Notes under the pieces: generated by a model
The model's database searches: none
Told to the model about the DNA's origin: nothing
What the model saw: the letters and a program-made list of their open reading frames with translations, nothing else
Position numbers and translations under genes: made by a program
Assembly (NCBI GenBank): GCA_964577395.1
Contig: CAZNYQ010000013.1
Span: 6,409-70,408, forward strand
Source: an uncultured Candidatus Saccharibacteria bacterium
GTDB lineage: Bacteria; Patescibacteriota; Minisyncoccia; JBAYJV01
Direction: 5' to 3'
Length of the DNA: 64,000 bases
Part shown: piece after piece, positions 21,456-62,709 of the stretch
How positions within the stretch are numbered: the first letter of the stretch is position 1
Layout: the number at the start of each line of letters is the position of its first letter

Positions 21456-22436
21456 TTATTCACAAGTTGCGTCACTAGTAGTTTCTGTATTTTCTAGAAT
21501 TTCATTACAAGCTTCGGGAGCTTCCTTAAAAGCGCTACATAAAGCTTCTTGATAAGCAGCAGCAGATCGTTCTCCATCATAAATTATATCATTAATAACT
21601 AAAGTTGGGGAACCTGTTACAATAGCTTTTTCTTTATTATTATGTGATGCGGGATTTTGGACAAGATATTCTTTATTAGTAAGAGAAACTTCTTTTTCTA
21701 GGATGTCTAATGCTTCTTCTTCTTGGCATTGCTTAACTTGATCTATATCGAGATCTAATTCTTGAGCAACAGCTTCCCATTTTTCATCAGCATTTTCACT
21801 AGTTGTTTCTTCATTCATTTTAAGAACGAAATCCCATAATTTTTCAGGTTGATATTTTTGAACACAAAGTTCTCTAATACCTTGATTAACCTCCTGAATA
21901 CCATGCATAGAGCAATATTTGTTTTCCTCATCAAAACAATAATCAGGATATCCTGAGGCATAATTGTCGTAGAAAACATAATGAAGTTCAATATCGCTTT
22001 TTTCGCCCAAAAGACTAACAACTGGTGCCATAATATCCTCAGCTTGGTTTCCAAAAGGACAATAAGCCATAACGAACAAGTCAACAGAAGGTTTAACTTG
22101 TTTAGTAATTGCTTTTGGTTCCGGAGGAGTGAGATCTACTACCTGAGGGAAAAGATATTCTCCATCTAAAGTTGCATAGGATTCGTATTCTTGCCCCATA
22201 ACATCCAATGTTAATTTATATAAAGATCCTTCTTTAATGATTTCTTTAACGGAAACCTCATCAGAACTGCCAATATCTTTAGCTATAATATCGACAATTT
22301 TTTTACTGAGATCTTCTTTAGTAATAGTAGGAAAACCGCCTGCTTGGTAAAAATTTTGATAAATAATTACAGCCAACAGAGCTAAAATAATTCCTCCTAA
22401 ATAGAGAGCTAGTGAATTCTTATTTTTTTTAGCCAT
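21456..22436 (-). CDS. membrane-anchored DsbA-like thioredoxin-fold protein (degenerate active site)
   Basis: N-terminal TM helix. AYCPFGNQ sits where DsbA has CxxC, and C-terminal GSPTLVINDIIY resembles the DsbA GTPTfvvNG motif. The second Cys of the CxxC is absent. Confidence 0.45.
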   Translation of the reverse strand: MAKKNKNSLALYLGGIILALLAVIIYQNFYQAGGFPTITKEDLSKKIVDIIAKDIGSSDEVSVKEIIKEGSLYKLTLDVMGQEYESYATLDGEYLFPQVVDLTPPEPKAITKQVKPSVDLFVMAYCPFGNQAEDIMAPVVSLLGEKSDIELHYVFYDNYASGYPDYCFDEENKYCSMHGIQEVNQGIRELCVQKYQPEKLWDFVLKMNEETTSENADEKWEAVAQELDLDIDQVKQCQEEEALDILEKEVSLTNKEYLVQNPASHNNKEKAIVTGSPTLVINDIIYDGERSAAAYQEALCSAFKEAPEACNEILENTETTSDATCE

Positions 22437-44272: not shown

Positions 44273-47254
44273 TTAAGGGACGTTAATATTTTTAGTGACT
44301 TTTTGGGTAACTGTTGGCCAGTGAAAGTTTAAAATATCAATATTTAGAATGAAACGGCATTTAGCATAAACTGATTTGGATCCGCCACTTGAAAATGTAT
44401 GATTTAAACCGCCTGGCTTTGATGCTGGATAGAGGGACTCTTTCTCTGAGCCATCCTTCCAATCAATTTTATTACTAGTAGGCATATCTAATCTTAATTT
44501 TGTTCCTCGATAAGCGATCGGGCCGATTTTAAAATAAATACCTTTGATAATTGGTTCTCCTAAAATACTGATATATATATTAGGAACACTACAGATGCCT
44601 ATAGAAGCAGGTTTAATATTCTCATCATATATCTTTACAGTATGAGGGGATGAATCTACGGCTTGAGCGTTAAGATTTCCCACACTACAATCTTCCCAAT
44701 TATTGCCATTTAATAAAGTACATACAGCTGATACGAGATCGGTAGGACAAGCAAAATTACCGCTTATATCAACCTCAATAACCAACTTCTTAATAATATT
44801 CATTAAATCAAGATGAATAATATCTTGAGCTAGATGCTGGTTTACGACAATTTTAAAGAAACGATGCAATATATCGTAGCGAATACCTGTTAATTTTTCT
44901 CCTTTCTTAGCTGCGAATTCAATAATTAGTTCTTCAACCCTATCTAAAGCATAGCTTTGTAATTCCTCAAAAGAAATATTTTTGGTTTCACTTAAAAATC
45001 TTGCAAAACTAGCTATTTCTGCTACTAATTCCGGATCTATACCTAAAGTTTCTTGTATGTAGGGAGCTAAAACATCTTGAACAATTCTTGTTATTATTTG
45101 TTTTCCACGAGAGATCAGGTAGGATTCAAAAGAGCTAATAAACTGATTTACATCAAACTCTAGAAAGATATTTAGGTCTTTGCCTTGCGCATTAATAGTA
45201 TAGTTGATGAAGTCTAGAACATATTTTGCTAATTCTGGACTGATTTTAAAATTTTCCTCTAAAACAGTTGTGATTTTAACGCTTAGAAAGTCAACCGCTT
45301 CTTCGATGAATTGTTGGCTATCAACATCTATGTCAATTCCTGCCTCGTCGAGCAGAATACTAATGCCATGACTTTCAATCTCAATAGATAGGTCTGATAT
45401 GTCGTAACCTTTGTCAAAAAGAAGAAATTTAATAAACTGAATTGTTTTTTCGATAATTCTGCTGTCAACTGCTTTTTGCACGAGCTCGCCGTCTATTTCT
45501 ACATCTATTTCTATGATGTCTAATAATTTATTAGCTGTTTGAGCTGCAAGGTCATAAGCGACGCTCCTTATAATGTCAAGGCCTTTTTGAAGAGTAATCC
45601 CGTGAGCTTGAACGTAGCTTTTCCAAAGTTCTTCTAGGCTAGATTTATTTTTTTGAATAATTTCTTGCAAACTTAGTCCTTTATTCTGGATCAAGAATTT
45701 TATAAAATTCTTGATATCATTTATTTGTTGATCATTTAAATTATATTCATCCTTAAGCTTTTGTATCTCTGTGGCAGCAAGAGAAGTCAGGGCTTCAATA
45801 ATTTGCTGTTGACTCGCTTCGCTCTCAAGATTTAATCCAGCTGATATTAAGTTTATTAATTTTTGAGCTTTTAGGATTTTTTTAATTAAAGGCGAGGAAT
45901 GTTGCTTGACATAACCATTCCACAATAGGTCAAACCATGCTTCTACATCAGAAGAGTCAGGGAGAGAGCCTCTTTCTATGCCTTGTTCGGCAAGAAAAGC
46001 AATAAAATTACCAATTTCTTGAGCTGTCCCTGTCTCAATATTAAGTTCAATTGCAAATTTTATAATAAATTCTTTAATAACTTGGGGAGCGACTTCTTTA
46101 ATTCCGTTAATGCCTGCGTTAACAAATTTATCAATGTTATCAGTAAAAAATTCGGGATCATTAATAGCTTGAATTGGATCTATTCCTTGAGATTGAAGCC
46201 AAAAATAAAAGTCAGCTAGAGCTTGCATATTTTTAGCTATATCTTCTCCAAAAAGGCCCACTATGACTTCACCGGTAAATTCTTCTGCAAAACCAGCGAG
46301 AAGATTACTTAACATTGAAGCAGTAATATTACACAAATCCCAACGTAAAGCATCTTTTTGTTCTTCACTCTCTGGAGCTTTTTTCCATCCTTCTTTTTCA
46401 GTACAAATATATTGAGGATCTGTAGGGTTATAATCACTTGGAGCTATATCTTCATGTACATTACCGCATTGCCATTCATAGTAGCCAGCATTATTTTTCT
46501 GACAGGTGGCTTCATCATAATAGCGACAATAAATTCCTTCTTCTTTTTCAATGACACGGGCTTCATCGCATGTATCTGAAGGCGCTCCTTGAGATAAGTA
46601 ACAATTAAAAGAGCTATCAACGTTTATTAAATCTTCTAAAAGATTATCAAAACTAATAATTGGTTCTGTGATATGGCAATCACTCTCAACTTTTACCCAA
46701 TAACCCTTAAAAGCTTCAAGATTTGCCCTAGGAGAAGTGAGATGATAATCATTACCAGAAGCTTCAAATAACCAATCAATTTTTAAATTACAGTTTCCCT
46801 TCAATTGTGCCCAGTTATAATTAGCGGTAGAGGCTATTAAATTCCATCCCGCTTCCAATTCTGTACTAAAGCCTCCTTCAGGAGGCATCTCTGCTTCACC
46901 CGAAGACCCAACCTCTAATTCACAATCATTAATTACCCTTACCCAGTAAGCTTTTAATGGTTTTAGAGCATCTCCGGCTTTACGATATTTATATAAATTA
47001 GGACTCCATTCCCAAGGACCTGAATCAATTTCACAGCCAGCTAGATATTCTGAACTTAATATTTCATCAGATACAGAGATGAGATTCCATCCCTTTTTAA
47101 GAGATACATTGCCCTGAGGAGCAAGCTCCATTTCTATTCCAGCTTGAGCTTTCTTAGGACTTAAAAAAGATCCTAAATAGACAAAACCAGTTTGCGTTAA
47201 AGTAAATGTTATAAGGACTATTGTAATTATTGTTTTTTTAAAAAACTTCTTCAT
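44273..47254 (-). CDS. very large (993 aa) signal-anchored surface protein with internal repeats, function unknown
   Basis: Signal/TM MKKFFKKTIITIVLITFTLT...AQA. Two tandem ~65-aa N-terminal repeats (GWNLIS...LKPLKAYWVRVINDCE / GWNLIA...LEAFKGYWVKVESDCH). The helical middle region carries recurring F-x-x-FL-x-x-KG-x-x-(F/L)-(E/Q)-E-(L/I) units. Confidence 0.6.
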   Translation of the reverse strand: MKKFFKKTIITIVLITFTLTQTGFVYLGSFLSPKKAQAGIEMELAPQGNVSLKKGWNLISVSDEILSSEYLAGCEIDSGPWEWSPNLYKYRKAGDALKPLKAYWVRVINDCELEVGSSGEAEMPPEGGFSTELEAGWNLIASTANYNWAQLKGNCNLKIDWLFEASGNDYHLTSPRANLEAFKGYWVKVESDCHITEPIISFDNLLEDLINVDSSFNCYLSQGAPSDTCDEARVIEKEEGIYCRYYDEATCQKNNAGYYEWQCGNVHEDIAPSDYNPTDPQYICTEKEGWKKAPESEEQKDALRWDLCNITASMLSNLLAGFAEEFTGEVIVGLFGEDIAKNMQALADFYFWLQSQGIDPIQAINDPEFFTDNIDKFVNAGINGIKEVAPQVIKEFIIKFAIELNIETGTAQEIGNFIAFLAEQGIERGSLPDSSDVEAWFDLLWNGYVKQHSSPLIKKILKAQKLINLISAGLNLESEASQQQIIEALTSLAATEIQKLKDEYNLNDQQINDIKNFIKFLIQNKGLSLQEIIQKNKSSLEELWKSYVQAHGITLQKGLDIIRSVAYDLAAQTANKLLDIIEIDVEIDGELVQKAVDSRIIEKTIQFIKFLLFDKGYDISDLSIEIESHGISILLDEAGIDIDVDSQQFIEEAVDFLSVKITTVLEENFKISPELAKYVLDFINYTINAQGKDLNIFLEFDVNQFISSFESYLISRGKQIITRIVQDVLAPYIQETLGIDPELVAEIASFARFLSETKNISFEELQSYALDRVEELIIEFAAKKGEKLTGIRYDILHRFFKIVVNQHLAQDIIHLDLMNIIKKLVIEVDISGNFACPTDLVSAVCTLLNGNNWEDCSVGNLNAQAVDSSPHTVKIYDENIKPASIGICSVPNIYISILGEPIIKGIYFKIGPIAYRGTKLRLDMPTSNKIDWKDGSEKESLYPASKPGGLNHTFSSGGSKSVYAKCRFILNIDILNFHWPTVTQKVTKNINVP

Positions 47255-49081: not shown

Positions 49082-49786
49082 ATGTCTCGTGTTAAAAAAT
49101 ATATTTTGGGTTTATTGATTCTTGTCATTATTTTTGTAATTTCAGTTGTTGTTTTTGTAGAAAGAGATCAAGAAGGTAAGCTTAAATTTTCTCTTACAGG
49201 CAGCCAAACTAATATTATTTCAGATAATTTTAATGAGGTTATTCAACAAGAACTTACCCTAGATGATATAAATTGGTCTGATGCATATAATAAAGTGCTT
49301 AAACAGAAATATTCTAAAGATAACTTAAATCAAAAAGAGATTGAAATTTCTAGCGGTGCCTCTAAAATTTCTGAAGAAGAAGCTGAGATGGATGAAGATA
49401 ATAAAGAAATAATTTTTCAAAAGTTCGTTAATTATTTAAATAATTCAGAGACAAAACTTGATGAAAATAAGAATCCCTTTCAATTAGCTTTAAATTACCG
49501 AGACGAGGGAAGACCAGAGAAAATTGATGGTTTAATATCTTTTTATGATTCAAAGGTCACTAGTCTTGAGAAAGTAACGCCTCCAGAAGAAGTTTTAGGA
49601 TATCACTTGGTCAAATTAAGACTTTTAAGAGAAATTAAGCTTGCAGTCAGTAAAATTAAAACTTCTTCTCAGGAAATGCCCCTTAAAGAAGTTTTATCCG
49701 AAGAGGAGATTAATTATTTGGCGAGACTTGATTTAATTTTAAAACAATATTTAGTATATTTTTTCCATGACAGAACAAAGGCTTAA
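49082..49786 (+). CDS. hypothetical N-terminally anchored protein
   Basis: Start lies 2 nt after the upstream stop. One N-terminal TM helix and no recognisable motif. Confidence 0.4.
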   Translation: MSRVKKYILGLLILVIIFVISVVVFVERDQEGKLKFSLTGSQTNIISDNFNEVIQQELTLDDINWSDAYNKVLKQKYSKDNLNQKEIEISSGASKISEEEAEMDEDNKEIIFQKFVNYLNNSETKLDENKNPFQLALNYRDEGRPEKIDGLISFYDSKVTSLEKVTPPEEVLGYHLVKLRLLREIKLAVSKIKTSSQEMPLKEVLSEEEINYLARLDLILKQYLVYFFHDRTKA

Positions 49787-52571
49787 AAGAAAACAAAATA
49801 TATTAAGATTAATCTTGGGATTAGTTATTATTTCTACCTTTTTGGTGGGCAGTTTTGTAAGAAGTGTTATAGCGGTAAATATCACGGGCAGTACTGTTGT
49901 TAATGAGCATTTTGATAGTAGTATTCCTGGGTATGATATTTGTAAGGAGTTGAGGCATTTAACGGAACCACAAGAAGATCCAACCTTAAGTCCTCCTCGT
50001 GAAGTTTTTAAGTATACAGTAAGCTCATCAGAAGATGATAGCGGAGGGGTCATAGGTGGAGGTGATACAGATTCAGTTGTAACGCAAGAAGGCAGCATTT
50101 TTCAAAAATGGTTTCTTGATGCATGTGTAATGGATGGATATCTTACAGAAGTAAGACATGTTGCCACAATTCATAATTTTGATGTAAGAAACTCTGATAT
50201 TTTTCAAAGCCAAATGGGGAATAATGAAGGCACTCTCGGAGAGTTGTTTGAAATAGCTCTTATGGAGGTTACTAAAAATAAAACATGGATGACAGAAGGT
50301 GCTGGTAGTTTGAGGAATTTAAGTCTTAAAGATTTTCTATTAGAACTTACACACGAGGAAACAATGCAGGTTGAAAAAGATAAAGAATGGATGGAAGAGG
50401 ATATCAGTAGCTTAGAAAAATCAAGTATGAAAGATTTTCTATTAGAGCTTACTCATGAGAGTACAATGGAGGCAACAGAAGGATATGATGATGACAAAAA
50501 CGAAGAATTAACCAAGGCTAGCATTAAAGATTTTCTTTTATATGTTAAGGATTCGAACGAACAGTTTATGACAGATCTTATGCAAGCTTTATCAGAGAAA
50601 GAAAAACTTCATATAAGATCCTTAAAAGAATACGAATTGGCTAAGATAGAAAAGGCAAGAGAAGATGTTAATAAATTAACTTATGAAGTTTACAATGAGC
50701 TCAAGGAAGAGCCTCTTGTTTATAATAATAATGGAGTAACAGGTGACATAGTACGCTCTCTAGGACTGAGGGTAGTGGAAGAAGAAAGCAGTAGTTGTCC
50801 TTTTGGGGTAATAATAAAGAATAGCTCTGGAGAAGAAGAATGTGTAATTATCAAAAGAGAAGGAAGGGTAATTCAGAATGTAGATGATTATATCTATGAA
50901 GAAGCTATTCAAAAAGCCCGTGATTTTGTTATGTGTTTCTTGGCTCCTTGGAGACATTTTCCTATAGGAGAAGATTATTATTTTGCTGCATCTTTTGAAG
51001 AATTTAAGAGTGTGCAAGATCATAATGATAAACTTAGGGACGGGACGTCGCCAGATTATATATGGACGGGAGATCCTGTTTGTGGAGAAGAAGCCACAGC
51101 CGAGATTAGGAATAATGCTTGTAATACGGAATGCGGAGATGACTCAACAAGAATAGATAAATGGAAATCAAGTAATTATGGAGAAATTAATGATTGTCGC
51201 GAATGCATTCGCGAAGAGTTGGATAACAAATGCGATACAGAATATATTTGCGAAAAAGCACGGGAAGAAGCAGGAGATCGCCCCGATATGTTTAGTGATG
51301 ATTTTGAGGATTATCTTAAGAAGCTTTGTCCTAGCGATCAGATAAAAGAACAGATTAAAAGAGATTTATTATTTGATATGGCTCGCAAATACAAATTTTT
51401 ATATAATGCACCTCCAGAAAATTGGTACTATAATTCTGGAGCTTCTGGTAACGCCAATGATAAAACCAAATGTGCTCTCATATTAGCCAATTTAGGCTAT
51501 GATGTTGATGGTATTGTAGAAGAAGAAATTGGTAATCCTCTTAGGAGCAATATGATTAAAAAATATGCAGAATATCAAGAAGATGTCTGGAGAACGGAAT
51601 TGCCCATTTCAGTTGCCTACCGTCCAGATGTGAGTAATAAAGATTATAACAAGCAAAACGCCGCTTTGACCTCTAGTACTGGAGAAGGAGTGAAGTCTTT
51701 TGCTCAAAATCTTGTAGATGAGATTATTAGCGATTATGAAAGTCTTCGTACCGCTGAATATATAGCAGGCGAAGGTATTAGGTCGGAAAAATATTTAATA
51801 GGTTTTCCTGCTTATGATGATGTAGGTGACGCATTAGGGGTATACTTTATAGATACTGAAAATATTATCTCACCGGCAATTTTCTTAAAAGACAAAATTG
51901 CAGCAGCTACTCAAGCGCAATTTGACCTAGCTCAAAATGCTTGGAAACAAAAGCCTGAAGGGATTGGCGTCGGAGAGCTAGGTTGTCCCGACCCCCACAT
52001 TGGCGAGATGGATAAATCAGACTTTAGCGATAAAAAACCATATACTGCCCTAGAGAATAAATGTACGAACGAAGAATTGGAACATGGTTGGTATTTAGTT
52101 GAAATTTCAGATCCCGGCACTCCTGAAGATGAGAAAGAATATGAATGTCGCTGGCCACAGTATAACGACATTACATGTGAGGTTTTTGGCTATATTACTA
52201 CAGAAGCTATCACCGATGAATTACCTAAGGAATTACCAGCACCTTGGGAAGATATTAATGAATATATGGAGGTGCCGGAGGAATATGTAACTTGGTTTGA
52301 AGGTGATGTCAATGGTGTATCAGGAGAGCAATTGGGGCTTAAAAAAGCACCTCCAGCATTTGATATTCCTGAATATGGCACGCAATACCCTGATTTAACA
52401 GCTGACGATATTTATCCAAATATTTATCAAGAAGCTTATGGAAAAGATCAATCCCTTTCAATGCCTAATAGTGATAAATATTATATTAATAAATGGTATA
52501 AGAATATCACCCAGCTTTACGAAAAGCCGATGTCTGAAATTCTAAGAACTTGGTTTAAAGAGAACCCTTAA
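49767..52571 (+). CDS. large (934 aa) N-terminally anchored extracytoplasmic protein with 3x tandem ~37-aa repeat and a Cys-rich segment
   Basis: Overlaps the upstream ORF by 20 nt. Contains the (S/M)(L/M)KDFLLELTHE(E/S)TM repeat three times and a Cys-rich block CGEEATAEIRNNACNTECGDD...CRECIREELDNKCDTEYIC. Confidence 0.5.
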   Translation: MTEQRLKRKQNILRLILGLVIISTFLVGSFVRSVIAVNITGSTVVNEHFDSSIPGYDICKELRHLTEPQEDPTLSPPREVFKYTVSSSEDDSGGVIGGGDTDSVVTQEGSIFQKWFLDACVMDGYLTEVRHVATIHNFDVRNSDIFQSQMGNNEGTLGELFEIALMEVTKNKTWMTEGAGSLRNLSLKDFLLELTHEETMQVEKDKEWMEEDISSLEKSSMKDFLLELTHESTMEATEGYDDDKNEELTKASIKDFLLYVKDSNEQFMTDLMQALSEKEKLHIRSLKEYELAKIEKAREDVNKLTYEVYNELKEEPLVYNNNGVTGDIVRSLGLRVVEEESSSCPFGVIIKNSSGEEECVIIKREGRVIQNVDDYIYEEAIQKARDFVMCFLAPWRHFPIGEDYYFAASFEEFKSVQDHNDKLRDGTSPDYIWTGDPVCGEEATAEIRNNACNTECGDDSTRIDKWKSSNYGEINDCRECIREELDNKCDTEYICEKAREEAGDRPDMFSDDFEDYLKKLCPSDQIKEQIKRDLLFDMARKYKFLYNAPPENWYYNSGASGNANDKTKCALILANLGYDVDGIVEEEIGNPLRSNMIKKYAEYQEDVWRTELPISVAYRPDVSNKDYNKQNAALTSSTGEGVKSFAQNLVDEIISDYESLRTAEYIAGEGIRSEKYLIGFPAYDDVGDALGVYFIDTENIISPAIFLKDKIAAATQAQFDLAQNAWKQKPEGIGVGELGCPDPHIGEMDKSDFSDKKPYTALENKCTNEELEHGWYLVEISDPGTPEDEKEYECRWPQYNDITCEVFGYITTEAITDELPKELPAPWEDINEYMEVPEEYVTWFEGDVNGVSGEQLGLKKAPPAFDIPEYGTQYPDLTADDIYPNIYQEAYGKDQSLSMPNSDKYYINKWYKNITQLYEKPMSEILRTWFKENP
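50317..50560 (+). repeat. in-frame tandem repeat (3 copies, ~111 nt unit) inside the 49767-52571 ORF
   Basis: Nucleotide-level copies aaagattttctattagaacttacacacgaggaaacaatg, aaagattttctattagagcttactcatgagagtacaatg, and aaagattttcttttatatgttaaggattcg (degenerate). Confidence 0.5.
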
Positions 52572-52623: not shown

Positions 52624-55600
52624 ATGTTTTTAAAATTAAAAAAATTTAAGTTTAATAAACAATGGTTGCCTTTCATTGCTTTAATATTGTCCTTTATATT
52701 TTTAATTTTTCCTAGAGGAGCTGCTCATGCAGGAGCAGGGGGATGGTTTGCTAGTCTTTTTTTAAGTCTATTAGGATTAATCCTGTATGTGCTAGCGGTG
52801 GCTTCTACTTTTATTCTTGGTATTGGTAGTAAGCTGTTGTCTTTTGTTATGACAACAACCTTTAATGAAGATCTTTTTATTGAAGCGCCTTTTGTTAAAG
52901 TAGCTTGGTCATTTACACGAGATTTCGCCAATTTATTTTTTATTCTTTGGCTTGTCATTATTGCCTTAGCTACAATTGTAGATGTAAAAGGTTATAGCGC
53001 TAAAAAATTATTGGTAAAACTTATTGTAGTAGCTTTATTAGTAAATTTCAGTTTAGTTTTGTGCTGTTTCATGCTAGATATTGCTCAAGGTGCGATGGGG
53101 TTCTTAACGCAATCAGTAATTGTAATTAAAGGAGAACCATTTTCACTGGCTGATGGACTATCTTATTCCTTTCGCCAGTCAGAACTTTTTGGTGCTCATC
53201 TGCCGTCAGGATCAAGCTTCTTTTTAGGAAATTTAGATTCCAGCATATCTACTGTAATGCATAATTTATTAGTGCTTGCTTTTTCTCTTATAGCAGCTTA
53301 TGTTTTTTTAATTTTATCAATTATGCTATTAGTTAGAGTTGTGGCGTTGTGGTTATTACTTATATTTGCTCCCTTAGCATGGACTTTCGGTATCATGCCT
53401 TTTGCTAAAAAAGCCTGGACAGAATGGATTAGTAAATTTTTTCAATGGGCATTCTACGGAGTAATAGTAGCTTTTTTAATGTATCTAGCTGCTATGGCAG
53501 TTTGGGCAATCCAAGAAGCTGAAGGATGGAGCGATAATTTAAATCAAGGAAGCGAGATGATGGGTAGTTTTGGTACGCAGGTTTCTTTTATAGAAAATTT
53601 TACCAGCATTTTAAGTTTTATAGTTGTAATTGTTCTTTTGCTAATGGCAAAAGGTGTTGGTATGTCAGCTGCTAAAAGCGGAGGAGATATGGTTACGAAT
53701 ATGGTGGCAGGTTATGTAGGAGGAAAAGCAGCCACTTGGGGGAAGAAACCAGTTCGCTATGCTAAAGATAAAGCACGAGATGTTAAGACAAGAACCAAAG
53801 GTGCTGTTGGTCGGAGCGTAATGCATGGGGGTGATATTCCGATTATAGGAAAAACAGTTAGAAGAGCAGGCACAAAATGGGCACTAGAAGATAAGCAGGA
53901 TAGATCACAGAAAGTGGGGAGATTTAGCGATTATTCTCAATTAAGCGATCAAGAACTTAAAGATATTAGCTCGAATATGGTAGGGCAAAAAGCTCAACAA
54001 GAAGAAATTGCTCAAGTTGCAAAATTAATGACTGATAGAAATCTTGTATATAATATAAGCGATGAAAAAGAGCTTAAGACGCTTCTTGATTCCCTGAAAA
54101 AGTTTGGAAATGATAGTGATGTTAAGAAATTTGAAGAAAAAAGACCAGATGCTATTCAAGCCAAAGGTCTTACGGTTCATGATATTATCGAAAGGCAACG
54201 CACGGGCCAGCCACTAGGAAGCGTTACGCTTCAAGAGGCTCGTCAATTACAAGAAAGAAGGCAAGAAGCTATTCAAAGAGCAATTAAAAATAACGAAGCT
54301 CAAAATTGGACGGAAGACTTTATCAGGAATAGTCTCTCTTCTGATCTTGTTGATGTTTTTGCGCAAGATAAAAATGGCGTAAAAATGATTAGTAAAGCAG
54401 CCGAAGATTGGGGCAGTGGAGTCAAAGAGTCTTTCTTAGAAAAAGTGATGGCGAATTTCTCAGATGATTTTGACGGAAATGATGCGGAAAGGAATTTAGC
54501 TGCTCGTAATTTTTATGGAAAATTAGGAGGGAATTATTATAAAGCTTATCATAGCGACGAGAAGGGCCGAATTGTTACTGATCCTAATTTTGTCAATAAC
54601 AATGTAAGGCAGACAGAGCTATTAGAAGCAATAGCAAAAATTAGCAGTACGAAAGATTGGGAAAAATTAGATGATAGTGACGAAAATCTTAAGCTTATCG
54701 CTCGACACATACAAAGTTCTCAAATCAACAATGCTGGACGTAATTTAGATAGCTATACTAAAGCTAAAATATATGATGAATTAAGGAAACAACGTCATGA
54801 TTCTTCTCTTGACCCAAGCGAACAAAAAGATCGCACAGAAGTTTATAAAACAATGACGTACAACGATACTTGGCCCGGCTCAATTACTGGAGATAGACTT
54901 GAGAAATTAAGAAAGCGCAAAGAAGAACGAGATAAGGAAAAGAAAGAAATGGATAAAATGCACGGAGAAGCTCTGCAAATGAACAAAGAATATGACAAGG
55001 AGCAACAAGAAAAACAACAAAAAGAAAGGGAAGAAATGAATAAGCTGCATGGAGAGGCAATAGAAGAAGACAGGTTGCGCGGAAAAGAGAAGGAAGCAAA
55101 AACAATAGAAGAAAGAGACAAAAAACAAAGAGAAGAAAAAGAAAAGGAGCGCCTAGAATTAGAAAAACAACGATTAGAGATGGAAAAGGAAAGACTTGAA
55201 ATGGAAAAGAAGAGATACAACAAAAAAGATAATGAGAAGGACAACGATGATGGTGATAACAATGGAGGGTTTTCTCAAAAAAAACCAACTCCTCCTCCTA
55301 GCACAGATTCAGGAGGAACGCAACGAACTCAATCGTCTGACAACAAACAGGATTATAATATTCGCGCTGATAGTGTTAATATTCAACCAAAAAGCACTCT
55401 TGACAACGGAAACACAAAAAATGTTAATTTAAATCAAAAAAATATCTCAATTAGCGAAGGAGAAAATGCTCCAAACCAAACAGTTGACCTAAGAGGAGAA
55501 AAAAAATCTCGCATAATAACACCAGAACCTCGTGGACATATTAAATTTTCCGAAGGTTCTGGGTGGACACCTCAACAGAAAAAAGATTTTGAAGAAAAGA

Positions 55601-56085
55601 GACAGCGCAAACATCAAGAAGCAATGGCTAAAAAACGAAAAACTAAATTAGGTAGCCAGAGCTTAAATAGGTTTAACGCTGGAGGGGTAAGCAATAATTC
55701 TCCCGAGCAAGCTTATCTACAAGGACAATACACTAGTCCCAAGGTATTAGGAGATAGCAAAACTATTCATATTGATGAAATCCCAGAGAAAAGTAAAATA
55801 TCTCAAGAAGGAGAGCAGAACATAACGGATAATAACTTAATGGAAATTACGCGTGTTCAGGCTCAGAGTGGTAAAATAAAAGAAGCAGTTAAGGGAGCTA
55901 AAAAAATACAAGATAGTGAGAAAAGAGGATATGCTTTATGGAATATTGCTGCCACTCAAGCGCAAAAGGGTAATTTTTCCGAGGCTCTTCGTATAGCACG
56001 TCAAATCGATCATGATAAAATCCGTAATTTAGCGATAAATGATTTAGAGTATTCGAAAGAAAGGGCACCGGAATCATATAGTTAA
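52624..56085 (+). CDS. VirB6/TrbL-like polytopic membrane protein with ~750-aa charged coiled-coil/low-complexity C-terminal extension (T4SS-like locus component)
   Basis: Signal/TM followed by ~8 TM helices in the first 350 aa, so a VirB6-like topology rather than sequence identity. The tail is K/E/R/D/Q-rich, with heptad-like runs KEKERLELEKQRLEMEKERLEMEKKRY, and ends in a Ser/Thr/Asn-rich region. Confidence 0.45.
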   Translation: MFLKLKKFKFNKQWLPFIALILSFIFLIFPRGAAHAGAGGWFASLFLSLLGLILYVLAVASTFILGIGSKLLSFVMTTTFNEDLFIEAPFVKVAWSFTRDFANLFFILWLVIIALATIVDVKGYSAKKLLVKLIVVALLVNFSLVLCCFMLDIAQGAMGFLTQSVIVIKGEPFSLADGLSYSFRQSELFGAHLPSGSSFFLGNLDSSISTVMHNLLVLAFSLIAAYVFLILSIMLLVRVVALWLLLIFAPLAWTFGIMPFAKKAWTEWISKFFQWAFYGVIVAFLMYLAAMAVWAIQEAEGWSDNLNQGSEMMGSFGTQVSFIENFTSILSFIVVIVLLLMAKGVGMSAAKSGGDMVTNMVAGYVGGKAATWGKKPVRYAKDKARDVKTRTKGAVGRSVMHGGDIPIIGKTVRRAGTKWALEDKQDRSQKVGRFSDYSQLSDQELKDISSNMVGQKAQQEEIAQVAKLMTDRNLVYNISDEKELKTLLDSLKKFGNDSDVKKFEEKRPDAIQAKGLTVHDIIERQRTGQPLGSVTLQEARQLQERRQEAIQRAIKNNEAQNWTEDFIRNSLSSDLVDVFAQDKNGVKMISKAAEDWGSGVKESFLEKVMANFSDDFDGNDAERNLAARNFYGKLGGNYYKAYHSDEKGRIVTDPNFVNNNVRQTELLEAIAKISSTKDWEKLDDSDENLKLIARHIQSSQINNAGRNLDSYTKAKIYDELRKQRHDSSLDPSEQKDRTEVYKTMTYNDTWPGSITGDRLEKLRKRKEERDKEKKEMDKMHGEALQMNKEYDKEQQEKQQKEREEMNKLHGEAIEEDRLRGKEKEAKTIEERDKKQREEKEKERLELEKQRLEMEKERLEMEKKRYNKKDNEKDNDDGDNNGGFSQKKPTPPPSTDSGGTQRTQSSDNKQDYNIRADSVNIQPKSTLDNGNTKNVNLNQKNISISEGENAPNQTVDLRGEKKSRIITPEPRGHIKFSEGSGWTPQQKKDFEEKRQRKHQEAMAKKRKTKLGSQSLNRFNAGGVSNNSPEQAYLQGQYTSPKVLGDSKTIHIDEIPEKSKISQEGEQNITDNNLMEITRVQAQSGKIKEAVKGAKKIQDSEKRGYALWNIAATQAQKGNFSEALRIARQIDHDKIRNLAINDLEYSKERAPESYS

Positions 56086-56980: not shown

Positions 56981-57391
56981 ATGAGATATCAATTACCTCA
57001 ATTTATTGAAATGGAAGATAAGCTTATAGGACCGCTTACATTAAGGCAGTTCTTATATTTAATTGCTGTGCCGATAATTTGTTATCTTCTGCATTTTTTT
57101 GTTCGCTTGCCGTATGTTATCATGGTAGGAGTTATATTTTTTCCCATAGCTTTATTGCTTGCTTTTTATAGAATTAACGGTAGACCTTTTACTCATGCTT
57201 TTTTGGGATTGTTAAGATTCGTTAAGAAACCTCAAATGTATGTTTGGGAGAGGAGCATGCATAGAGTAAGTCAAGAAGAAGGTGTAGAAAAAACAACTGA
57301 CGATGAAAAGCAAAAAAATTCTGTGGAAAATAAGAAAAAGAAGAAAGACTTTAAAAAATTAGCCCAAGCCCTTGATCAAGGTAATACTTAA
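56981..57391 (+). CDS. PrgI-family / VirB3-like small membrane protein
   Basis: MRYQLPQFIEMEDKLIGPLTLRQFLYLIAVPIICYLL... followed by a second TM helix. This matches the PrgI pattern of Gram-positive T4SS, and it is encoded immediately before the VirB4 genes, as PrgI is before PrgJ. Confidence 0.5.
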   Translation: MRYQLPQFIEMEDKLIGPLTLRQFLYLIAVPIICYLLHFFVRLPYVIMVGVIFFPIALLLAFYRINGRPFTHAFLGLLRFVKKPQMYVWERSMHRVSQEEGVEKTTDDEKQKNSVENKKKKKDFKKLAQALDQGNT

Positions 57392-57411: not shown

Positions 57412-58062
57412 ATGGCTTTTAATCCATCACAAAAACTTGTTCCCATCAAAGAAATACGAGAAGGAGTTGTCATTTTGAAAAGCGGTGCCTTAAGGGCAGT
57501 GCTTTTAGTGTCGAGCATTAATTTTTCTCTTAAGTCCAATGAAGAACAGGAGGCAATCATTGCAAAATTTCAAGGATTTCTTAACTCTCTTGATTATCCT
57601 ATTCAGACAATTATTCAATCCCGTAAACTTAAAATAGATAAATATCTAGCCAGTATAAAAGAATTAGAAAAATCTCAAGAGAACGAACTTTTACGGGTTC
57701 AAACGTCTGAATATCATAATTTTATTAAAGAGCTTGTTGCTTCAGCCAATATTATGAATAAGAGCTTCTATGTTGTTATTTCTTACTCCCTAGGAGAAGG
57801 TTCTCAAAAGAAGGGTTTTCTCGGTATGGTTAAAGATGTTGCAGGTAGCTCTAGTCAAGTTAGTCAAAAACGTTTTAAACAACTTAAAGCTCAATTGTGG
57901 CAAAGAGTTGATCATGCAGCTGCTAGCTTATCAAGCATGGGAATTAGAGTGGTCCCTCTTAATACGCAAGAATTAATCGAACTTTATTATGAGCTCTATA
58001 ATCCGGGAGCTGACAATAAAAGAGATTTATCAGCGCCCGAAGAGATGGGGTTAAAAAATTAA
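57412..58062 (+). CDS. VirB4/TrbE/ConE-family N-terminal domain encoded as a separate ORF (split VirB4)
   Basis: LVPIKEIREGVVILKSGALRAVLLVSSINFSLKSNEEQEAIIAKFQGFLNSL resembles the characteristic VirB4 N-terminus. The ORF ends 5 nt before the ATPase ORF, which is in a different frame. Confidence 0.55.
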   Translation: MAFNPSQKLVPIKEIREGVVILKSGALRAVLLVSSINFSLKSNEEQEAIIAKFQGFLNSLDYPIQTIIQSRKLKIDKYLASIKELEKSQENELLRVQTSEYHNFIKELVASANIMNKSFYVVISYSLGEGSQKKGFLGMVKDVAGSSSQVSQKRFKQLKAQLWQRVDHAAASLSSMGIRVVPLNTQELIELYYELYNPGADNKRDLSAPEEMGLKN

Positions 58063-58067
58063 TTTTT

Positions 58068-60071
58068 ATGTCAGATCAATCTAAAAAACAAAAAGCATCA
58101 GTCCATAGTCAAGAAGATAATAACCATAATTCAGATAAAAAATTTATAGTTATTGAAACTATGCCTAAGGACCTAAAGGATGAAAAACAGGATACGACTA
58201 GTAAGAATAAGAATAACAAGAGGCAAGTCAACCATAAAGAAATTATTAAAAAAATTAAAAATACTAACAAGAAAAAGAAGCAAAAAAAAGGTTTTCTTAA
58301 TAATCTCTTAGGTGGAGGCAAGGAAAAAACATCTTATGAGAAAGGAGTTGCTACCTTAAAAGACTTATTAGCACCTTCAGCTCTTAAAATAGAATCTCAA
58401 TATCTTCAACTAGGCGATAAATACTTAAGGACTATTTTTGTCTTAAATTATCCTAGATATCTTCATAGTGCGTGGCTATCTTCCATTATTAATTTAGATA
58501 GAGTTTTTGATATTTCTATTTTTGTTCACCCAGTTGAAAGCTCAACTATCTTAAAAAATCTTCAAAAGAAACTAGCTCGTGTTCAAGCTCAAATTACAGA
58601 TCGAGAAGAACAGGGAAGAGTTCGTGACCCGAAGCTCGAAACTGCCTATAACGATATTGAAGATTTAAGAGATCGTTTGCAAACTGGACAAGAGAAGTTC
58701 TTTCAGGCAGGTGTATATTTAACAATTTACGCAGACAGCTTAAAAGACCTGGATGAGGGGGTTGCCGAGATTAGGAATATTTTAGAATCTCAATTAATCT
58801 ATGCTAAACCTGCTCTGTTTATCCAAGAAGACGGTCTTCATTCAACTTTTCCTTATGCTCAGGACAAACTTCAAGTTTTAACGAGCATGAATACGCAACC
58901 CTTATCGACTATTTTTCCTTTCGTTTCCTCGGATCTTAGCTCTAATAAAGGTATTCTATATGGGGTAAATAGGCATAATAATAGTTTAATTCTTTTTGAT
59001 AGATTTAATTTAGAAAATGCCAATATGGTAATTTTTGGAGTATCAGGAGCTGGTAAAAGTTACGCTGTTAAACTAGAGGTTCTTAGGCAGCTTATGACAG
59101 GGACTGATGTATTAATTATTGACCCCGAAAATGAATATCAGTATTTAGCAGAAGCAGTTGGAGGTACTTTTGTTAAAATATCATTAAGTTCACCATACCA
59201 TATTAATCCCTTTGACGTGCCCGAACCGGCTGAAAATGAAGATCTGGGTAGCATCCTAAGATCGCATTTTGGCACTATCACAGGTATGTTAAAAATGCTT
59301 TTAGGTAATTTATCAGCAGAAGAAGAGGCTATTTTAGATAAAGCAGTAATAGAAACATATGCTTCTAGAGATATTACCCCTGACAATGATTTTATGAAAA
59401 AAGATATCACGCCTCCTAAAATGCAGGACTTGCAAGAAGTTTTAGAAGGCATGGAGGGAGCTAAAAGCTTAGCGATTAAGCTGGAAAAATATACAAAAGG
59501 TACTTTCTCTGAATTTTTAAATAATTATACTAATATTGATATTAAAAAAGGATTAATGGTTTTTAATATTCGAGATGTGGAGGAGGAATTAAGGCCAGTA
59601 GCGATGTATGTAATTTTAAATTATATTTGGCGTTTAGTGCGGTCTAAATTAAAAAAGAGACTTTTAATAGTTGATGAAGCTTGGTGGATGATGCGTCATA
59701 AAGCAGGTGCGGAGTTTTTGTTTAGTATGGCTAAAAGAGCCCGTAAATATTATTTAGGATTAACAACTATTACTCAAGACGTAGCCGATTTTGCTAACTC
59801 AGAATATGGTAAACCAATTATAACCAACTCATCTCTTCAATTGCTCTTAAAACAATCTCCTGCCACTATTCAGGAAGTAGCTCGCATTTTTAACCTAACT
59901 CAAGAAGAAAAATATTTATTGCTAGAAGGAGAAGTAGGCGAAGGTCTTTTTTTCGCAGGACTTAAACATGTTGCTATTAAAATAGTAGCTTCTTACAGTG
60001 AGGATCAAGTAATTACCTCTGACCCAAAGCAACTTTTAGAGATTGAAGAAGCTAAGAAAAAACTTGGTTAA
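58068..60071 (+). CDS. VirB4/TrbE/ConE-family type IV secretion ATPase (central and C-terminal ATPase domains), with Lys/Asn-rich N-terminal linker
   Basis: Central region YLRTIFVLNYPRYLHSAWLSSIINLD is like the VirB4 middle domain. Walker A is FGVSGAGKSY and Walker B is LLIVDEAWWMM; DEAW is characteristic of VirB4. Confidence 0.8.
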   Translation: MSDQSKKQKASVHSQEDNNHNSDKKFIVIETMPKDLKDEKQDTTSKNKNNKRQVNHKEIIKKIKNTNKKKKQKKGFLNNLLGGGKEKTSYEKGVATLKDLLAPSALKIESQYLQLGDKYLRTIFVLNYPRYLHSAWLSSIINLDRVFDISIFVHPVESSTILKNLQKKLARVQAQITDREEQGRVRDPKLETAYNDIEDLRDRLQTGQEKFFQAGVYLTIYADSLKDLDEGVAEIRNILESQLIYAKPALFIQEDGLHSTFPYAQDKLQVLTSMNTQPLSTIFPFVSSDLSSNKGILYGVNRHNNSLILFDRFNLENANMVIFGVSGAGKSYAVKLEVLRQLMTGTDVLIIDPENEYQYLAEAVGGTFVKISLSSPYHINPFDVPEPAENEDLGSILRSHFGTITGMLKMLLGNLSAEEEAILDKAVIETYASRDITPDNDFMKKDITPPKMQDLQEVLEGMEGAKSLAIKLEKYTKGTFSEFLNNYTNIDIKKGLMVFNIRDVEEELRPVAMYVILNYIWRLVRSKLKKRLLIVDEAWWMMRHKAGAEFLFSMAKRARKYYLGLTTITQDVADFANSEYGKPIITNSSLQLLLKQSPATIQEVARIFNLTQEEKYLLLEGEVGEGLFFAGLKHVAIKIVASYSEDQVITSDPKQLLEIEEAKKKLG

Positions 60072-60090
60072 TATGTATCGTTAAACTTTT

Positions 60091-60414
60091 ATGAGTGTTA
60101 ACTCTCAAGGGCAATCAGCAGAGAATGAATATATAAGAAAAAGCAGATTAGATAGAGTTAGGCGCATAGCTATGAACAAAAAAGCTAAAAAGGAAGCAAT
60201 GCGTCAAGGAGCCAAAGAAAAACTTAAAAAACAAGCTAAGAAGAAAGCTGCCTCAGTAGCCTTAAAAAAGATTTTTATTGCGATTGCGCCTTACTTGTTC
60301 ATACTGATTATTGCTTTTATTGCTTTTGCTGGTTTGATATATTATGTTTGTGAGGGCGGAGGTCTTGTAGCGTCAATTCTACGTCTTACGTCCCTTGGTA
60401 ATGTATGTCCTTGA
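60091..60414 (+). CDS. hypothetical small bitopic membrane protein with Lys-rich N-terminus (T4SS-like locus)
   Basis: 107 aa with one TM helix (IFIAIAPYLFILIIAFIAFAGLIYYV). No recognisable motif. Confidence 0.4.
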   Translation: MSVNSQGQSAENEYIRKSRLDRVRRIAMNKKAKKEAMRQGAKEKLKKQAKKKAASVALKKIFIAIAPYLFILIIAFIAFAGLIYYVCEGGGLVASILRLTSLGNVCP

Positions 60415-60429
60415 TTATATATATAAAAT

Positions 60430-61203
60430 ATGTTTAATTTTTTGAAAATTCAAAGATTAGCTATACTTACTTTAGTTTTTTTAATAATTTCTTTTTCCTT
60501 TTCTACCATTTTTATTGCTCTAGCTGGAGATAGTTCAGCTGGGCCTGGTGAGTTTGATGAAAAGGAAAGAGAGCCCTTTGAATACAAATTGATGGTTCCT
60601 CTGCCCACAGCAAGCGGAACTGTGGCAACAACAACAGGCATTGTTGATTATATCAAAACTCTTTATCTTTTTGGCATGGGTATTGCAGGCATCCTTGCGA
60701 TGGCAATGATTATTGTTGGAGGTTTTCAATGGATGGGTGGAGGTAGTATTACATCAACAAGAGCTGCTAAATCTCGAGTTTCCAATGCTGTTCTAGGTCT
60801 AGTTTTATTATTAGCAGCTTATTTAATCTTAAACACTATAAATCCTGCCTTAGTTAATTTAAAAGAACCCTATATTTATTTTATAGAGTGGTACAGAGAT
60901 TTCCCTGATGATGGGAATACTGGAACAGGTGGAACAGGTGGAGGAGGTGGATCAGATCCATGTGATGATATGGATTCTTGTTCTGAGTATAATTTTTATA
61001 TTGATTGCGTGAATGATATTTGTTCGTTAGGATGTACTATCAGTGAATGTGATATTTTAGATAGTAGTGATACATTTGGATGTGTTCAGAAAAACATTAC
61101 TAGTTGTAGTGATTATATGTTTTCAATATCTTGCCAGACTGATCCTTGTGGTGTTGGCGGGTGTAGTTATGATACTAACACAAAAACTTGTGCTAATAAT
61201 TAA
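60430..61203 (+). CDS. VirB2/TrbC-like two-helix 'pilin-like' membrane protein with Cys-rich C-terminal domain
   Basis: Signal peptide ending at a candidate ALA|GDS cleavage site. Two hydrophobic helices (LYLFGMGIAGILAMAMIIVGGF and AVLGLVLLLAAYLILNTI) separated by a short basic loop, which is the T4SS pilin topology. Then a Gly-rich linker TGTGGTGGGGGS and a ~90-aa domain with 14 Cys. Confidence 0.4.
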   Translation: MFNFLKIQRLAILTLVFLIISFSFSTIFIALAGDSSAGPGEFDEKEREPFEYKLMVPLPTASGTVATTTGIVDYIKTLYLFGMGIAGILAMAMIIVGGFQWMGGGSITSTRAAKSRVSNAVLGLVLLLAAYLILNTINPALVNLKEPYIYFIEWYRDFPDDGNTGTGGTGGGGGSDPCDDMDSCSEYNFYIDCVNDICSLGCTISECDILDSSDTFGCVQKNITSCSDYMFSISCQTDPCGVGGCSYDTNTKTCANN

Positions 61204-61482
61204 AATATATTATTTTTTATAAAGAGGTAACTTAATTTTTGTGAGTACCTAATAATAATTTATTTATATATAATTTAGTTAATAACTAAGAAAACTTTAC
61301 AAAACTTAATGGCATCAATCGAGTGAATAGAGAAGGAGTTATCGATTATTTCTAGTTGATGATTAGTATATTTTTTAGTTAATGGTTGCCAGAAAAACAT
61401 TATTATAGATTAACGATTTGATTAATGATTTATAAAAATTAATTTTTCTTCTTATAAAATTTTATTCTTTAATATTATCAAA

Positions 61483-62709
61483 ATGAAACTTAATTTTCGC
61501 AAATTATTAATAATAGGAATCATAATATTAGGTATTGTTGTGCTTATTTTAGGCGTATGGATTCTTTTTTTTGGAGGCGAGAAAGATGGTCAAGAAAATA
61601 AGCCAATAGACATGGAAAACAGTAATTTAGAGAACGAAAGCAACGCTAGTGAGTTTAATCAATTAGAATCAGATATTCAAAGTCAAACTAAGGCAGATGA
61701 ATTTAATCAAAAGATTGAAGAAATAAAATTATCGGAAAAGGTAAGCATTTTATCAGATAGGCCAGTCATTGGAATTACTTTAAATAAAACAGGGGATAGA
61801 GTGGTCTATTATGATAGAGATACAGGTCAGGTTTTTCGTATTAGTTTTGACGGCAAGGTATGGGAAAGAGTTTCTGACATAGAAAATGATAACATTCAGA
61901 GCGTTCAATGGTCTCTAGATGGCAGCAAGTCAATTGTTAAAAATCAAAAAGGAGACACAATAGATACTTATATATATGATAGTCAAAATGGCCAAATATA
62001 TGACTTAAATGACAAGATTGGATCAATCGTTTTTTCGCCTGATGGAAGAAGAATACTTTATCATTTTTGGGATAGTTATAATAAGAGCAATATTGCAATT
62101 GCTAATTATGATGGCAGTAATTGGGAAGAACTTTTTAAAAGTAGTATGACAGGATTAAAACTTTATTGGCCTAAGCTTGATACGGTGGCTTTCCTATCGC
62201 CAGGAGGTGACTTTTATGGTGCTGATTTATATTTTACTAAGCTAGACTCACCTTATCAGTTAGATAAAATTTTAGATGATAAGTTTAATTTACGAGTTAA
62301 TTGGGCTCCTAGCGGAATAAGGTTATTGTATAGCTATAAGACAAAAAAAGAGAGTAGTCGTAGAAGGTTTTATTTAAGAGATTATGATAAAAAAACTGAT
62401 ACGTCTCTATCTTTCAATGCTTTACCTGAAAATTGTGTCTGGAACAAAGATGAAACTTCTCTATACTGCGCTGAAAAGACAACTAATTTTACTGATATTA
62501 TTCCCAATGATTATCAAAAAAAGCTATCTTTAGAAAGTGATAGCTTTTGGAAAATTGATTTTCAAGCTCAAGAATTTCAAGAAATATATATTCCTGAAAA
62601 GGAAGAAGAAAAGGTTTATAACATAGGAGAATTAATTGTTTCAGATAATGAAGACTATTTATTCTTTATCAATAAACTGGACGGGAAACTTTACAGCTTG
62701 AGAATTTAA
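61483..62709 (+). CDS. N-terminally anchored TolB-like beta-propeller (PD40-repeat) protein
   Basis: N-terminal TM. Recurring SxDG motifs (WSLDGSKSIV, FSPDGRRILYHF, WAPSGIRLLYSY) are typical of TolB / PD40 blades. Confidence 0.5.
   Translation: MKLNFRKLLIIGIIILGIVVLILGVWILFFGGEKDGQENKPIDMENSNLENESNASEFNQLESDIQSQTKADEFNQKIEEIKLSEKVSILSDRPVIGITLNKTGDRVVYYDRDTGQVFRISFDGKVWERVSDIENDNIQSVQWSLDGSKSIVKNQKGDTIDTYIYDSQNGQIYDLNDKIGSIVFSPDGRRILYHFWDSYNKSNIAIANYDGSNWEELFKSSMTGLKLYWPKLDTVAFLSPGGDFYGADLYFTKLDSPYQLDKILDDKFNLRVNWAPSGIRLLYSYKTKKESSRRRFYLRDYDKKTDTSLSFNALPENCVWNKDETSLYCAEKTTNFTDIIPNDYQKKLSLESDSFWKIDFQAQEFQEIYIPEKEEEKVYNIGELIVSDNEDYLFFINKLDGKLYSLRI

Follow-up and report, generated by a model that had tools for sequence, protein, structure and literature searches.

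The 64,000-nucleotide stretch of DNA analysed here as a whole (the window; G+C content 32.6%) derives from an uncultured Candidatus Saccharibacteria bacterium and encodes a pilin of a type IV secretion system (T4SS) whose helical core is extended by a cysteine-rich C-terminal tail. Comparison with related loci indicates that the core is kept nearly constant while the tail diverges and is exchanged, which makes the tail a candidate surface for contact with a host cell. The open reading frame (ORF) at 60430–61203, proposed in a first-pass annotation of the same DNA, is real, and the peptide strings quoted there are correct. Twelve metagenome contigs, among them JGI records with names in ML8_ and MLSed_, encode a protein identical to the product of this ORF (P0001). 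The gene is built up as follows:

60430–61203, plus strand: complete tailed pilin ORF, 257 amino acids plus stop codon; T4SS_pilin core fused to a Cys-rich tail.
60430–60525, plus strand: signal-peptide-like leader, residues 1–32; MFNFLKIQR, a hydrophobic stretch and ALA/G, assigned by hydropathy and the −3/−1 Ala rule.
60526–60639, plus strand: acidic mature N-terminal segment, residues 33–70, with an invariant MVPLPT motif (homologue alignment).
60631–60840, plus strand: match to PF18895 T4SS_pilin, residues 68–137; helix 1, basic loop and helix 2.
60859–60957, plus strand: conserved post-helix segment LKEPYIYFIEWYRDFPDD, followed by the Gly-rich linker, residues 162–176 (homologue alignment).
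60958–61053, plus strand: Cys module 1, residues 177–208, six Cys; a degenerate copy.
61078–61200, plus strand: Cys module 2, residues 217–257, six Cys; canonical, C..ITSCsdY..C.tDPCGV.GC......C.

The pilin gene is the last one of a tightly spaced operon with the order VirB6-like protein, 287-amino-acid protein, PrgI, TrsD, VirB4, 107-amino-acid protein and pilin. The genes preceding it include:

52624–56085, plus strand: VirB6/TrbL-like polytopic membrane protein, 1153 amino acids; precomputed Pfam match PF19590 TrbL_3.
56981–57391, plus strand: PrgI (VirB3-like), 136 amino acids; PF12666, 34.3 bits against a gathering score of 27.
57412–58062, plus strand: TrsD/TraC-like protein resembling the VirB4 N-terminal domain, 216 amino acids; NF045975, NF041427 TrsD and PF26593.
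58068–60071, plus strand: VirB4-like ATPase, 667 amino acids; PF19044 at 1.3e-27 and PF03135 at 3.3e-6.
60091–60414, plus strand: 107-amino-acid protein with a Lys-rich N-terminus and one hydrophobic stretch; no family match.

No family was matched by the 287-amino-acid protein. The VirB6-like protein carries a long charged, Lys/Glu-rich C-terminal extension ('extended VirB6'), and its assignment is weaker than those of the other operon genes, since our own hmmscan with a 2025 copy of Pfam returned no family. The 107-amino-acid gene is located between VirB4 and pilin in every syntenic locus examined and is fast-evolving (35–58% identity); its product may be an undescribed T4SS component or a partner of the pilin. 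The gene order of the operon is repeated in four other genomes (L006, L089, L090 and L092). Neither a relaxase nor a coupling protein was noticed in the T4SS locus of the window, and a promoter and terminator scan of positions 59900–61600 yielded counts no greater than those in shuffled sequence. The locus is a chromosomal T4SS of Patescibacteria as published in PMC12102498. T4SSs of this kind with VirB2-like pilins have been described for Patescibacteria, one cultured species of which cannot grow epibiotically without them (PMC12102498, PMC10633639, PMC12857230). Quinonero-Coronel et al. (2025) report VirB2-like pilins in 1,948 assemblies, 1,135 of them near virB4 (PMC12102498), and Wang et al. 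(2023) found both the pilin array and the T4SS genes of Ca. Southlakia epibionticum to be essential (PMC10633639).

The N-terminal part of the window protein covers positions 2–71 of the 71 positions of PF18895 with a score of 29.4 bits, above the gathering score of 26.6, and its membership in the T4SS_pilin family can be regarded as established on this profile match. An AlphaFold2 (AF2) model calculated with 24 homologues displays a helical hairpin formed by residues 71–102 and 107–137 and, in front of it, a β-hairpin at residues 51–69; the overall predicted local distance difference test score (pLDDT) of 66 indicates modest confidence. Hydropathy and segment charges place helix 1 at residues 71–102, the loop at residues 103–117 and helix 2 at residues 118–143, with three Lys/Arg and no Asp/Glu residues in the loop (GGGSITSTRAAKSRV). 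The leader contains Lys6 and Arg9, a long hydrophobic stretch and the tripeptide Ala-Leu-Ala directly before Gly33; AxA or a similar tripeptide is found at the equivalent position of the homologues. Nine of the 15 linker residues are Gly, and residues 144–174 are probably flexible, since their pLDDT falls below 50. The leader, the two helices around a basic loop and the Gly-rich linker described in the first-pass annotation are thereby confirmed in outline by inspection and segment charges. Its assignment of a pilin-like N-terminal part is likewise borne out by the profile score, the modelled hairpin and the position of the gene in the T4SS operon directly after VirB4, with the 107-amino-acid gene in between.

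A pilin of type IV pili (T4P) was ruled out. The class III signal peptide of T4P pilins consists of a short basic leader with Gly at position −1 and a conserved Glu at position +5, and a single hydrophobic helix is located at the N-terminus. The leader of the window protein, however, is 32 residues long, ends in ALA and lacks a G/F..E motif, and two further hydrophobic helices follow.

The tail comprises residues 177–257 and is acidic, with 13 Asp/Glu against 2 Lys/Arg residues. It contains 12 Cys residues, at positions 178, 184, 193, 198, 202, 207, 218, 226, 235, 240, 245 and 254, so that the 14 Cys counted in the first-pass annotation have to be corrected, while its notion of a separate Cys-rich domain without a known family match holds. 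The spacings of 5, 8, 4, 3 and 4, then 10, then 7, 8, 4, 4 and 8 residues divide the tail into two 6-Cys modules. The window pilin is the most Cys-rich ORF of the window. Across the 46 long ORFs of the window Cys accounts for 0.77% of the residues, and at this background frequency the binomial probability of at least 12 Cys in 80 residues is 1.6e-12, which excludes chance as the source of the enrichment.

Twenty-four modules taken from 25 close homologues were aligned; all of them retain the six Cys and nearly all retain one Tyr, and the consensus reads C-x(2-15)-[IV]xxC-x-[DEQ]-Y-x(n)-C-xx[DN]PCGV-x(2-3)-C-x(5-10)-C. The number of tail Cys is even in all 25 close homologues, ranging from 6 to 26, and the cores contain none or one; this fits disulfide-bonded extracellular modules. 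Folded alone by AF2 with 11 homologous tails, the tail yields a confident model of short helices and a terminal β-hairpin (pLDDT 81.8, predicted template modelling score 0.65). No Pfam family was matched by three tails at E ≤ 10, comparison of the tail with PDB sequences gave chance matches only, and Foldseek searches of the tail model against PDB and BFVD returned nothing at E ≤ 0.001. The best Foldseek matches, which are non-significant, are plexin A1 and semaphorins 2a and 2b (E values of 1.9–9.4 over 33–36 columns). The plexin-semaphorin-integrin (PSI) domain, PF01437, is a small extracellular Cys-knotted module, as predicted for the window tail. Nevertheless it was rejected as an assignment, since there is no Pfam match at E ≤ 10, the Cys spacing differs and the Foldseek leads are non-significant; hhalign of the module profile with the PSI sequence of integrin beta-3 gave a probability of 0.9%.

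A metal-binding or redox function, with a metallothionein-like tail in place of a disulfide-knotted fold, would agree with the abundance of Cys, the acidic composition and the fact that no Dsb-type gene was noticed in the window. It is nonetheless extremely improbable. CC or CxC clusters are absent and the spacings range from 3 to 10 residues; aromatic residues are present, with Phe and the near-invariant Tyr among them, and Cys counts are even across the subfamily. Moreover, the tail is predicted to be extracellular, AF2 returns a compact and confident fold without a metal, and no Pfam metallothionein was matched even at E ≤ 10. Neither of the alternatives named in the first-pass annotation, a different topology or a known unrelated family such as an EGF-like or metallothionein-like domain attached to a non-pilin, was thus encountered.

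A capacity to form disulfides is supported by the reported enrichment of MdbA-like oxidoreductase and VKOR in genomes of the candidate phyla radiation (CPR) (bioRxiv 10.1101/335083). The window itself holds a cytoplasmic-type thioredoxin motif and other CxxC proteins. A separate observation concerns a 325-amino-acid protein with 8 Cys encoded at 21456–22436 on the minus strand, which matches the thioredoxin-like domain VSR_TRX with 35 bits against a gathering score of 27 and contains no CxxC.

The first-pass annotation had suggested looking for the Cys-rich domain elsewhere. The window contains no second copy; an exhaustive HMMER search with the module profile through 1.84 billion cluster representatives, however, retrieved 17 proteins at E ≤ 0.001. 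These are tailed pilins and about ten non-pilin proteins with 2–6 tandem modules, and a scan of the latter ten found no other Pfam domain at gathering score. P0044 (L091:2409-4217) is 602 residues long and contains six or more 6-Cys modules; its operon consists of small unknown genes and a gene for a 600-residue NlpC/P60 protein (L091:6891-8693). Because the same contig encodes an archaeal replication factor A (E = 4e-61), the module occurs outside Patescibacteria as well and is common to CPR bacteria and an archaeon. The DPCGV module is a rare and unannotated repeat with a predicted extracellular location. The module-bearing proteins P0048, P0052, P0054 and P0055, which have no pilin core, begin with a short basic stretch, Gly/Ala and a hydrophobic helix (for example MKKGQLEDTIISLALV), and these leaders appear to resemble class III (type IV prepilin-like) signal peptides.

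The frequency of tailed pilins was estimated from a GTDB scan in which the core motifs alone served as patterns. The scan retrieved 448 relatives, and the best 80 loci, whose titles name Patescibacteria lineages or are obviously automatic labels, were subjected to an ORF census. Ninety ORFs with a pilin core were identified in them, of which 77 bear tails of 40 residues or more; tails of this length with 4 or more Cys are present in 68 of the 90. Over all 90 ORFs the median tail length is 213 residues, with a maximum of 497. Bare pilins of 120–137 residues account for about 10 of the 90. Where a tail has at least 4 Cys, their number is even in 59 of 70 cases. More distant relatives carry other C-terminal domains, and for ten long-tailed relatives Pfam recognised PF18895 alone. 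Judged from these sequences, the tailed form is the usual one in this pilin family and the DPCGV module its restricted part. The architecture is accordingly not unusual, and it is undescribed solely insofar as the literature searched does not mention it. Tails or cysteines on these pilins are not mentioned in the available parts of PMC12102498, PMC10633639 and PMC12857230, and a keyword search of the literature, incomplete in coverage and hence giving absence of evidence only, found no other paper that mentions tails on Patescibacteria T4SS pilins. New in relation to this literature is that Patescibacteria T4SS pilins mostly appear to carry unannotated, Cys-rich and fast-changing C-terminal ectodomains on constant cores.

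Two observations from the same survey concern individual relatives. P0028, P0029, P0030 and P0041 combine a pilin core with a conserved, H-x-H...D-like C-terminal domain without a Pfam match. P0013 (L007:10001-10729), a tailed pilin of the same subfamily as the window protein, lies remote from T4SS genes and adjoins genes for a Zip transporter and an Fe-hydrogenase; tailed pilins thus also exist as orphans outside the T4SS locus.

The size of the tails raises the main rival explanation, according to which the hairpin is a two-helix membrane anchor or T4SS docking module that does not polymerise, and the tail a cell-bound adhesin or structural element of the envelope. Very large tails, with the median and maximum given above, would be readily accommodated on such an anchor. 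The same holds for P0037 (375 residues), in which the T4SS_pilin core is fused to NlpC/P60 and Amidase_5, since an enzyme domain behind the pilin core suits membrane anchoring better than a packed pilus. The enzyme-like tails of P0037, P0028, P0029, P0030 and P0041 may fill the role of the cell-wall hydrolase VirB1, which is missing in most genomes of the 2025 survey (PMC12102498). Gram-positive-type T4SSs are, moreover, normally devoid of pili (PMC12102498), and no similarity of the window protein to solved pilins was detected. Despite these points a non-polymerising anchor is considered rather unlikely, because the pilin gene keeps its place as the last of the T4SS operon and because of the conservation of the core described below.

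The 25 close homologues include 30 pairs with a core identity of 90–100%; apart from one pair identical throughout, the tails of these pairs share 14–48% identity. The contrast is illustrated by the orthologous loci L089 and L090, whose products are 90.5% identical in VirB4, 89.2% in the downstream gene and 93.3% in the pilin core, but 36.2% in the pilin tail; along the nucleotide sequence, identity dips in two places only, the tail and the 5' portion of the 107-amino-acid gene. With 15–19% identity the tails of other loci are effectively unalignable with that of the window, compared with 35–49% for the least conserved neighbouring genes. By these comparisons no other part of the locus evolves as fast as the tail.

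Loci with more than one pilin display the same pattern within a genome. Four out of ten contain paralogs with 100% identical core proteins and tails of 22–42% identity, and in two further ones the cores are 86–89% identical. In L006, a syntenic locus on a 768-kb contig, two tandem pilins are perfectly identical over about 394 nucleotides, a stretch that opens at the mature N-terminus and reaches the first Cys codon, and similarity ends abruptly on either side. Recent recombination or gene conversion is suggested by the near-perfect identity of the core DNA in L006, L055 and L066. In L047 all 29 differences in the 407-nucleotide core region leave the core protein unchanged, which shows purifying selection on the core. 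That tandem cores remain 100% identical despite synonymous differences suggests a demanding interaction such as co-assembly and speaks against a simple anchor.

Tail variation could also be explained by a variable shield: exposed to phages or other antagonists as a target, the tail would vary for the sake of evasion and not of binding. Pili are common phage receptors, hypervariability is restricted to the exposed tail, and tails are swapped on constant cores, as such a role would demand. However, the scaffold of six Cys, Tyr and DPCGV is conserved and the module is reused in other secreted proteins, one of them archaeal, suggesting a functional fold and not simply a decoy. Evasion and binding are, in addition, compatible with each other, and evasion as the role of the tail is regarded as highly improbable.

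Two mechanisms of variation were rejected for the window. A target of a diversity-generating retroelement (DGR) is not indicated, as there is no template repeat in the window, where no search for a reverse transcriptase gene was made; the variation in tail length and module number is also unlike that produced by a DGR. Variation from silent cassettes within the window was dropped because tail DNA repeats and a second core or tail are lacking: when the tail DNA was compared with the entire window by blastn (word size 7), no match exceeded 30 nucleotides and all were attributable to chance, and translation in six frames revealed no further pilin core or tail. In L089 (7490-7950), a 94-residue GIY-YIG ORF and a 59-residue ORF are inserted directly after the variable tail. 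The insertion is absent at the equivalent place in L090, L006, L092 and the window, and the presence of a homing-type endonuclease beside a recombining segment may be no coincidence.

In the first-pass annotation the Cys-rich region was taken for a tip domain. Under this explanation a bare major pilin encoded elsewhere would form the shaft, and the tailed pilin, as a minor subunit, would cap or prime it and provide a single adhesive tip. Tail-less subunits do exist in the family, as the census shows, and the window covers only 64 kb of the genome. The T4SS locus, the rest of the window and the adjoining 7 kb contain, however, no other ORF with a pilin core, and at this place the syntenic genomes carry one or two pilins, every one of them tailed. 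As VirB2 topology would furthermore put the tail outside on every subunit, the tip assignment is not sustained and an exclusive tip function appears improbable.

Just upstream of the T4SS operon, proteins of 934 residues (49767–52571, plus strand) and 993 residues (44273–47254, minus strand) are encoded. Both start with a hydrophobic leader and show locally clustered Cys (18 and 16 Cys, respectively); Pfam and NCBIfam returned no match above threshold for either. A large ORF is found at the equivalent position upstream of the T4SS operon in L006 and L092.

The interpretation judged probable, by a slight balance, is that the window protein is a VirB2-like pilin of the chromosomal Patescibacteria T4SS, with the disulfide-stabilised tail as a variable host-contact surface. 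The protein would be exported by the Sec pathway and its leader cleaved after Ala32. According to the charge distribution, the positive-inside rule and VirB2 topology, the two helices would then insert as a hairpin with the basic loop in the cytoplasm and both mature ends outside, so that the 81 C-terminal residues would be tethered outside the membrane by the flexible Gly-rich linker. The even number of invariant Cys and the confident AF2 model suggest that the tail folds as two 6-Cys modules with disulfides. The core would be handled by the machine of VirB4, VirB6 and PrgI, either for polymerisation into a filament or for retention at the machine. In both cases the outer surface would present one tail per subunit, in many copies and without a single tip. 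In F-like pili both termini of the pilin are located on the outside of the filament; a filament of the window protein would accordingly be a decorated shaft with a tail on every subunit, rather than one with a tip. Since the tail is variable and exchanged between strains and tandem paralogs, it most likely represents the specificity-determining contact toward a host cell or another external partner.

Several points weigh against the pilin interpretation. For the window protein and its close relatives a pilus, like any function, is putative, and the leader cleavage and membrane topology of the window protein were judged by inspection of hydropathy and segment charges. The label 'pilin' derives from PF18895, the topology and the gene neighbourhood. 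PF04956 (TrbC/VirB2) is not matched by the window protein at E ≤ 0.1; P0041, a relative, scores 21.2 bits (E = 3.3e-4) and stays under the gathering score of 27.9. No pilin was retrieved from the PDB sequences at E ≤ 10 with a profile built from 19 cores, and Foldseek with the full, low-confidence model (pLDDT 66) found only generic helical hairpins in the PDB (E > 1); kinship to the solved VirB2/TraA pilins was dropped, as neither the profile nor the fold search detected any. Tails of 200–500 residues, as found in relatives, are hard to fit on each subunit of a packed VirB2-type filament. The disulfides in the tail are predicted, and no Dsb, MdbA or VKOR gene was recognised in the 64-kb window, which says little. 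Finally, the fast divergence could also reflect weak constraint or phage pressure instead of host recognition.

A wider proposal, tentative and rather doubtful, extends the host-contact interpretation to the family as a whole. The tails would be exchangeable host-recognition cassettes, and the core would be kept identical by purifying selection and gene conversion, permitting both co-assembly and tail swaps by homologous recombination. The tail repertoire would set which hosts can be attached to, and the module would have moved between CPR bacteria and an archaeon. If this is true, a module shared by CPR bacteria and an archaeon would point to a common adhesion toolkit of ultra-small symbionts. 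Should the majority of these pilins bear a variable outer domain, stabilised by disulfides, on a constant core, this domain is an obvious candidate for host contact and offers a testable handle on host range, and caution is advised in modelling the Patescibacteria pilus with simple small VirB2 pilins.

The closest known counterparts of the window pilin are the VirB2-like pilins of Patescibacteria (PF18895), which share its core family, operon, chromosomal setting and bacterial group. These have been treated as small proteins, and the published arrays diverge over their full length, with a mean identity of 25% and a maximum of 54% (PMC10633639, PMC12102498). The window, in contrast, contains a single gene with a tail of two 6-Cys modules, and its relatives swap tails on constant cores.

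With the classical TrbC/VirB2/TraA pilins of the T-pilus and F-pilus the window pilin has in common a long leader, two helices around a short basic loop and VirB3, VirB4 and VirB6 as neighbours. The classical pilins, however, terminate directly after helix 2 or are cyclised, and they lack both an additional domain and a Cys-rich region, whereas the window pilin continues into its tail.

A similar logic is known from PilE of Neisseria, which has a disulfide-bonded hypervariable C-terminal region and varies by pilE/pilS recombination. Here as well a constant polymerisation core is combined with a variable exposed C-terminal part and recombination on conserved sequence. Fold and machinery are nevertheless unrelated; the window pilin lacks a class III signal peptide, the window contains no silent cassettes, and the variants in the window family are expressed paralogs or alleles.

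Arrays of VirB2 paralogs at the T4SS locus are also found in Bartonella and Anaplasma, where they are thought to vary the exposed surface (PMC12102498). In these bacteria the pilin itself varies, whereas in the family of the window pilin the core stays constant and the appended domain varies.

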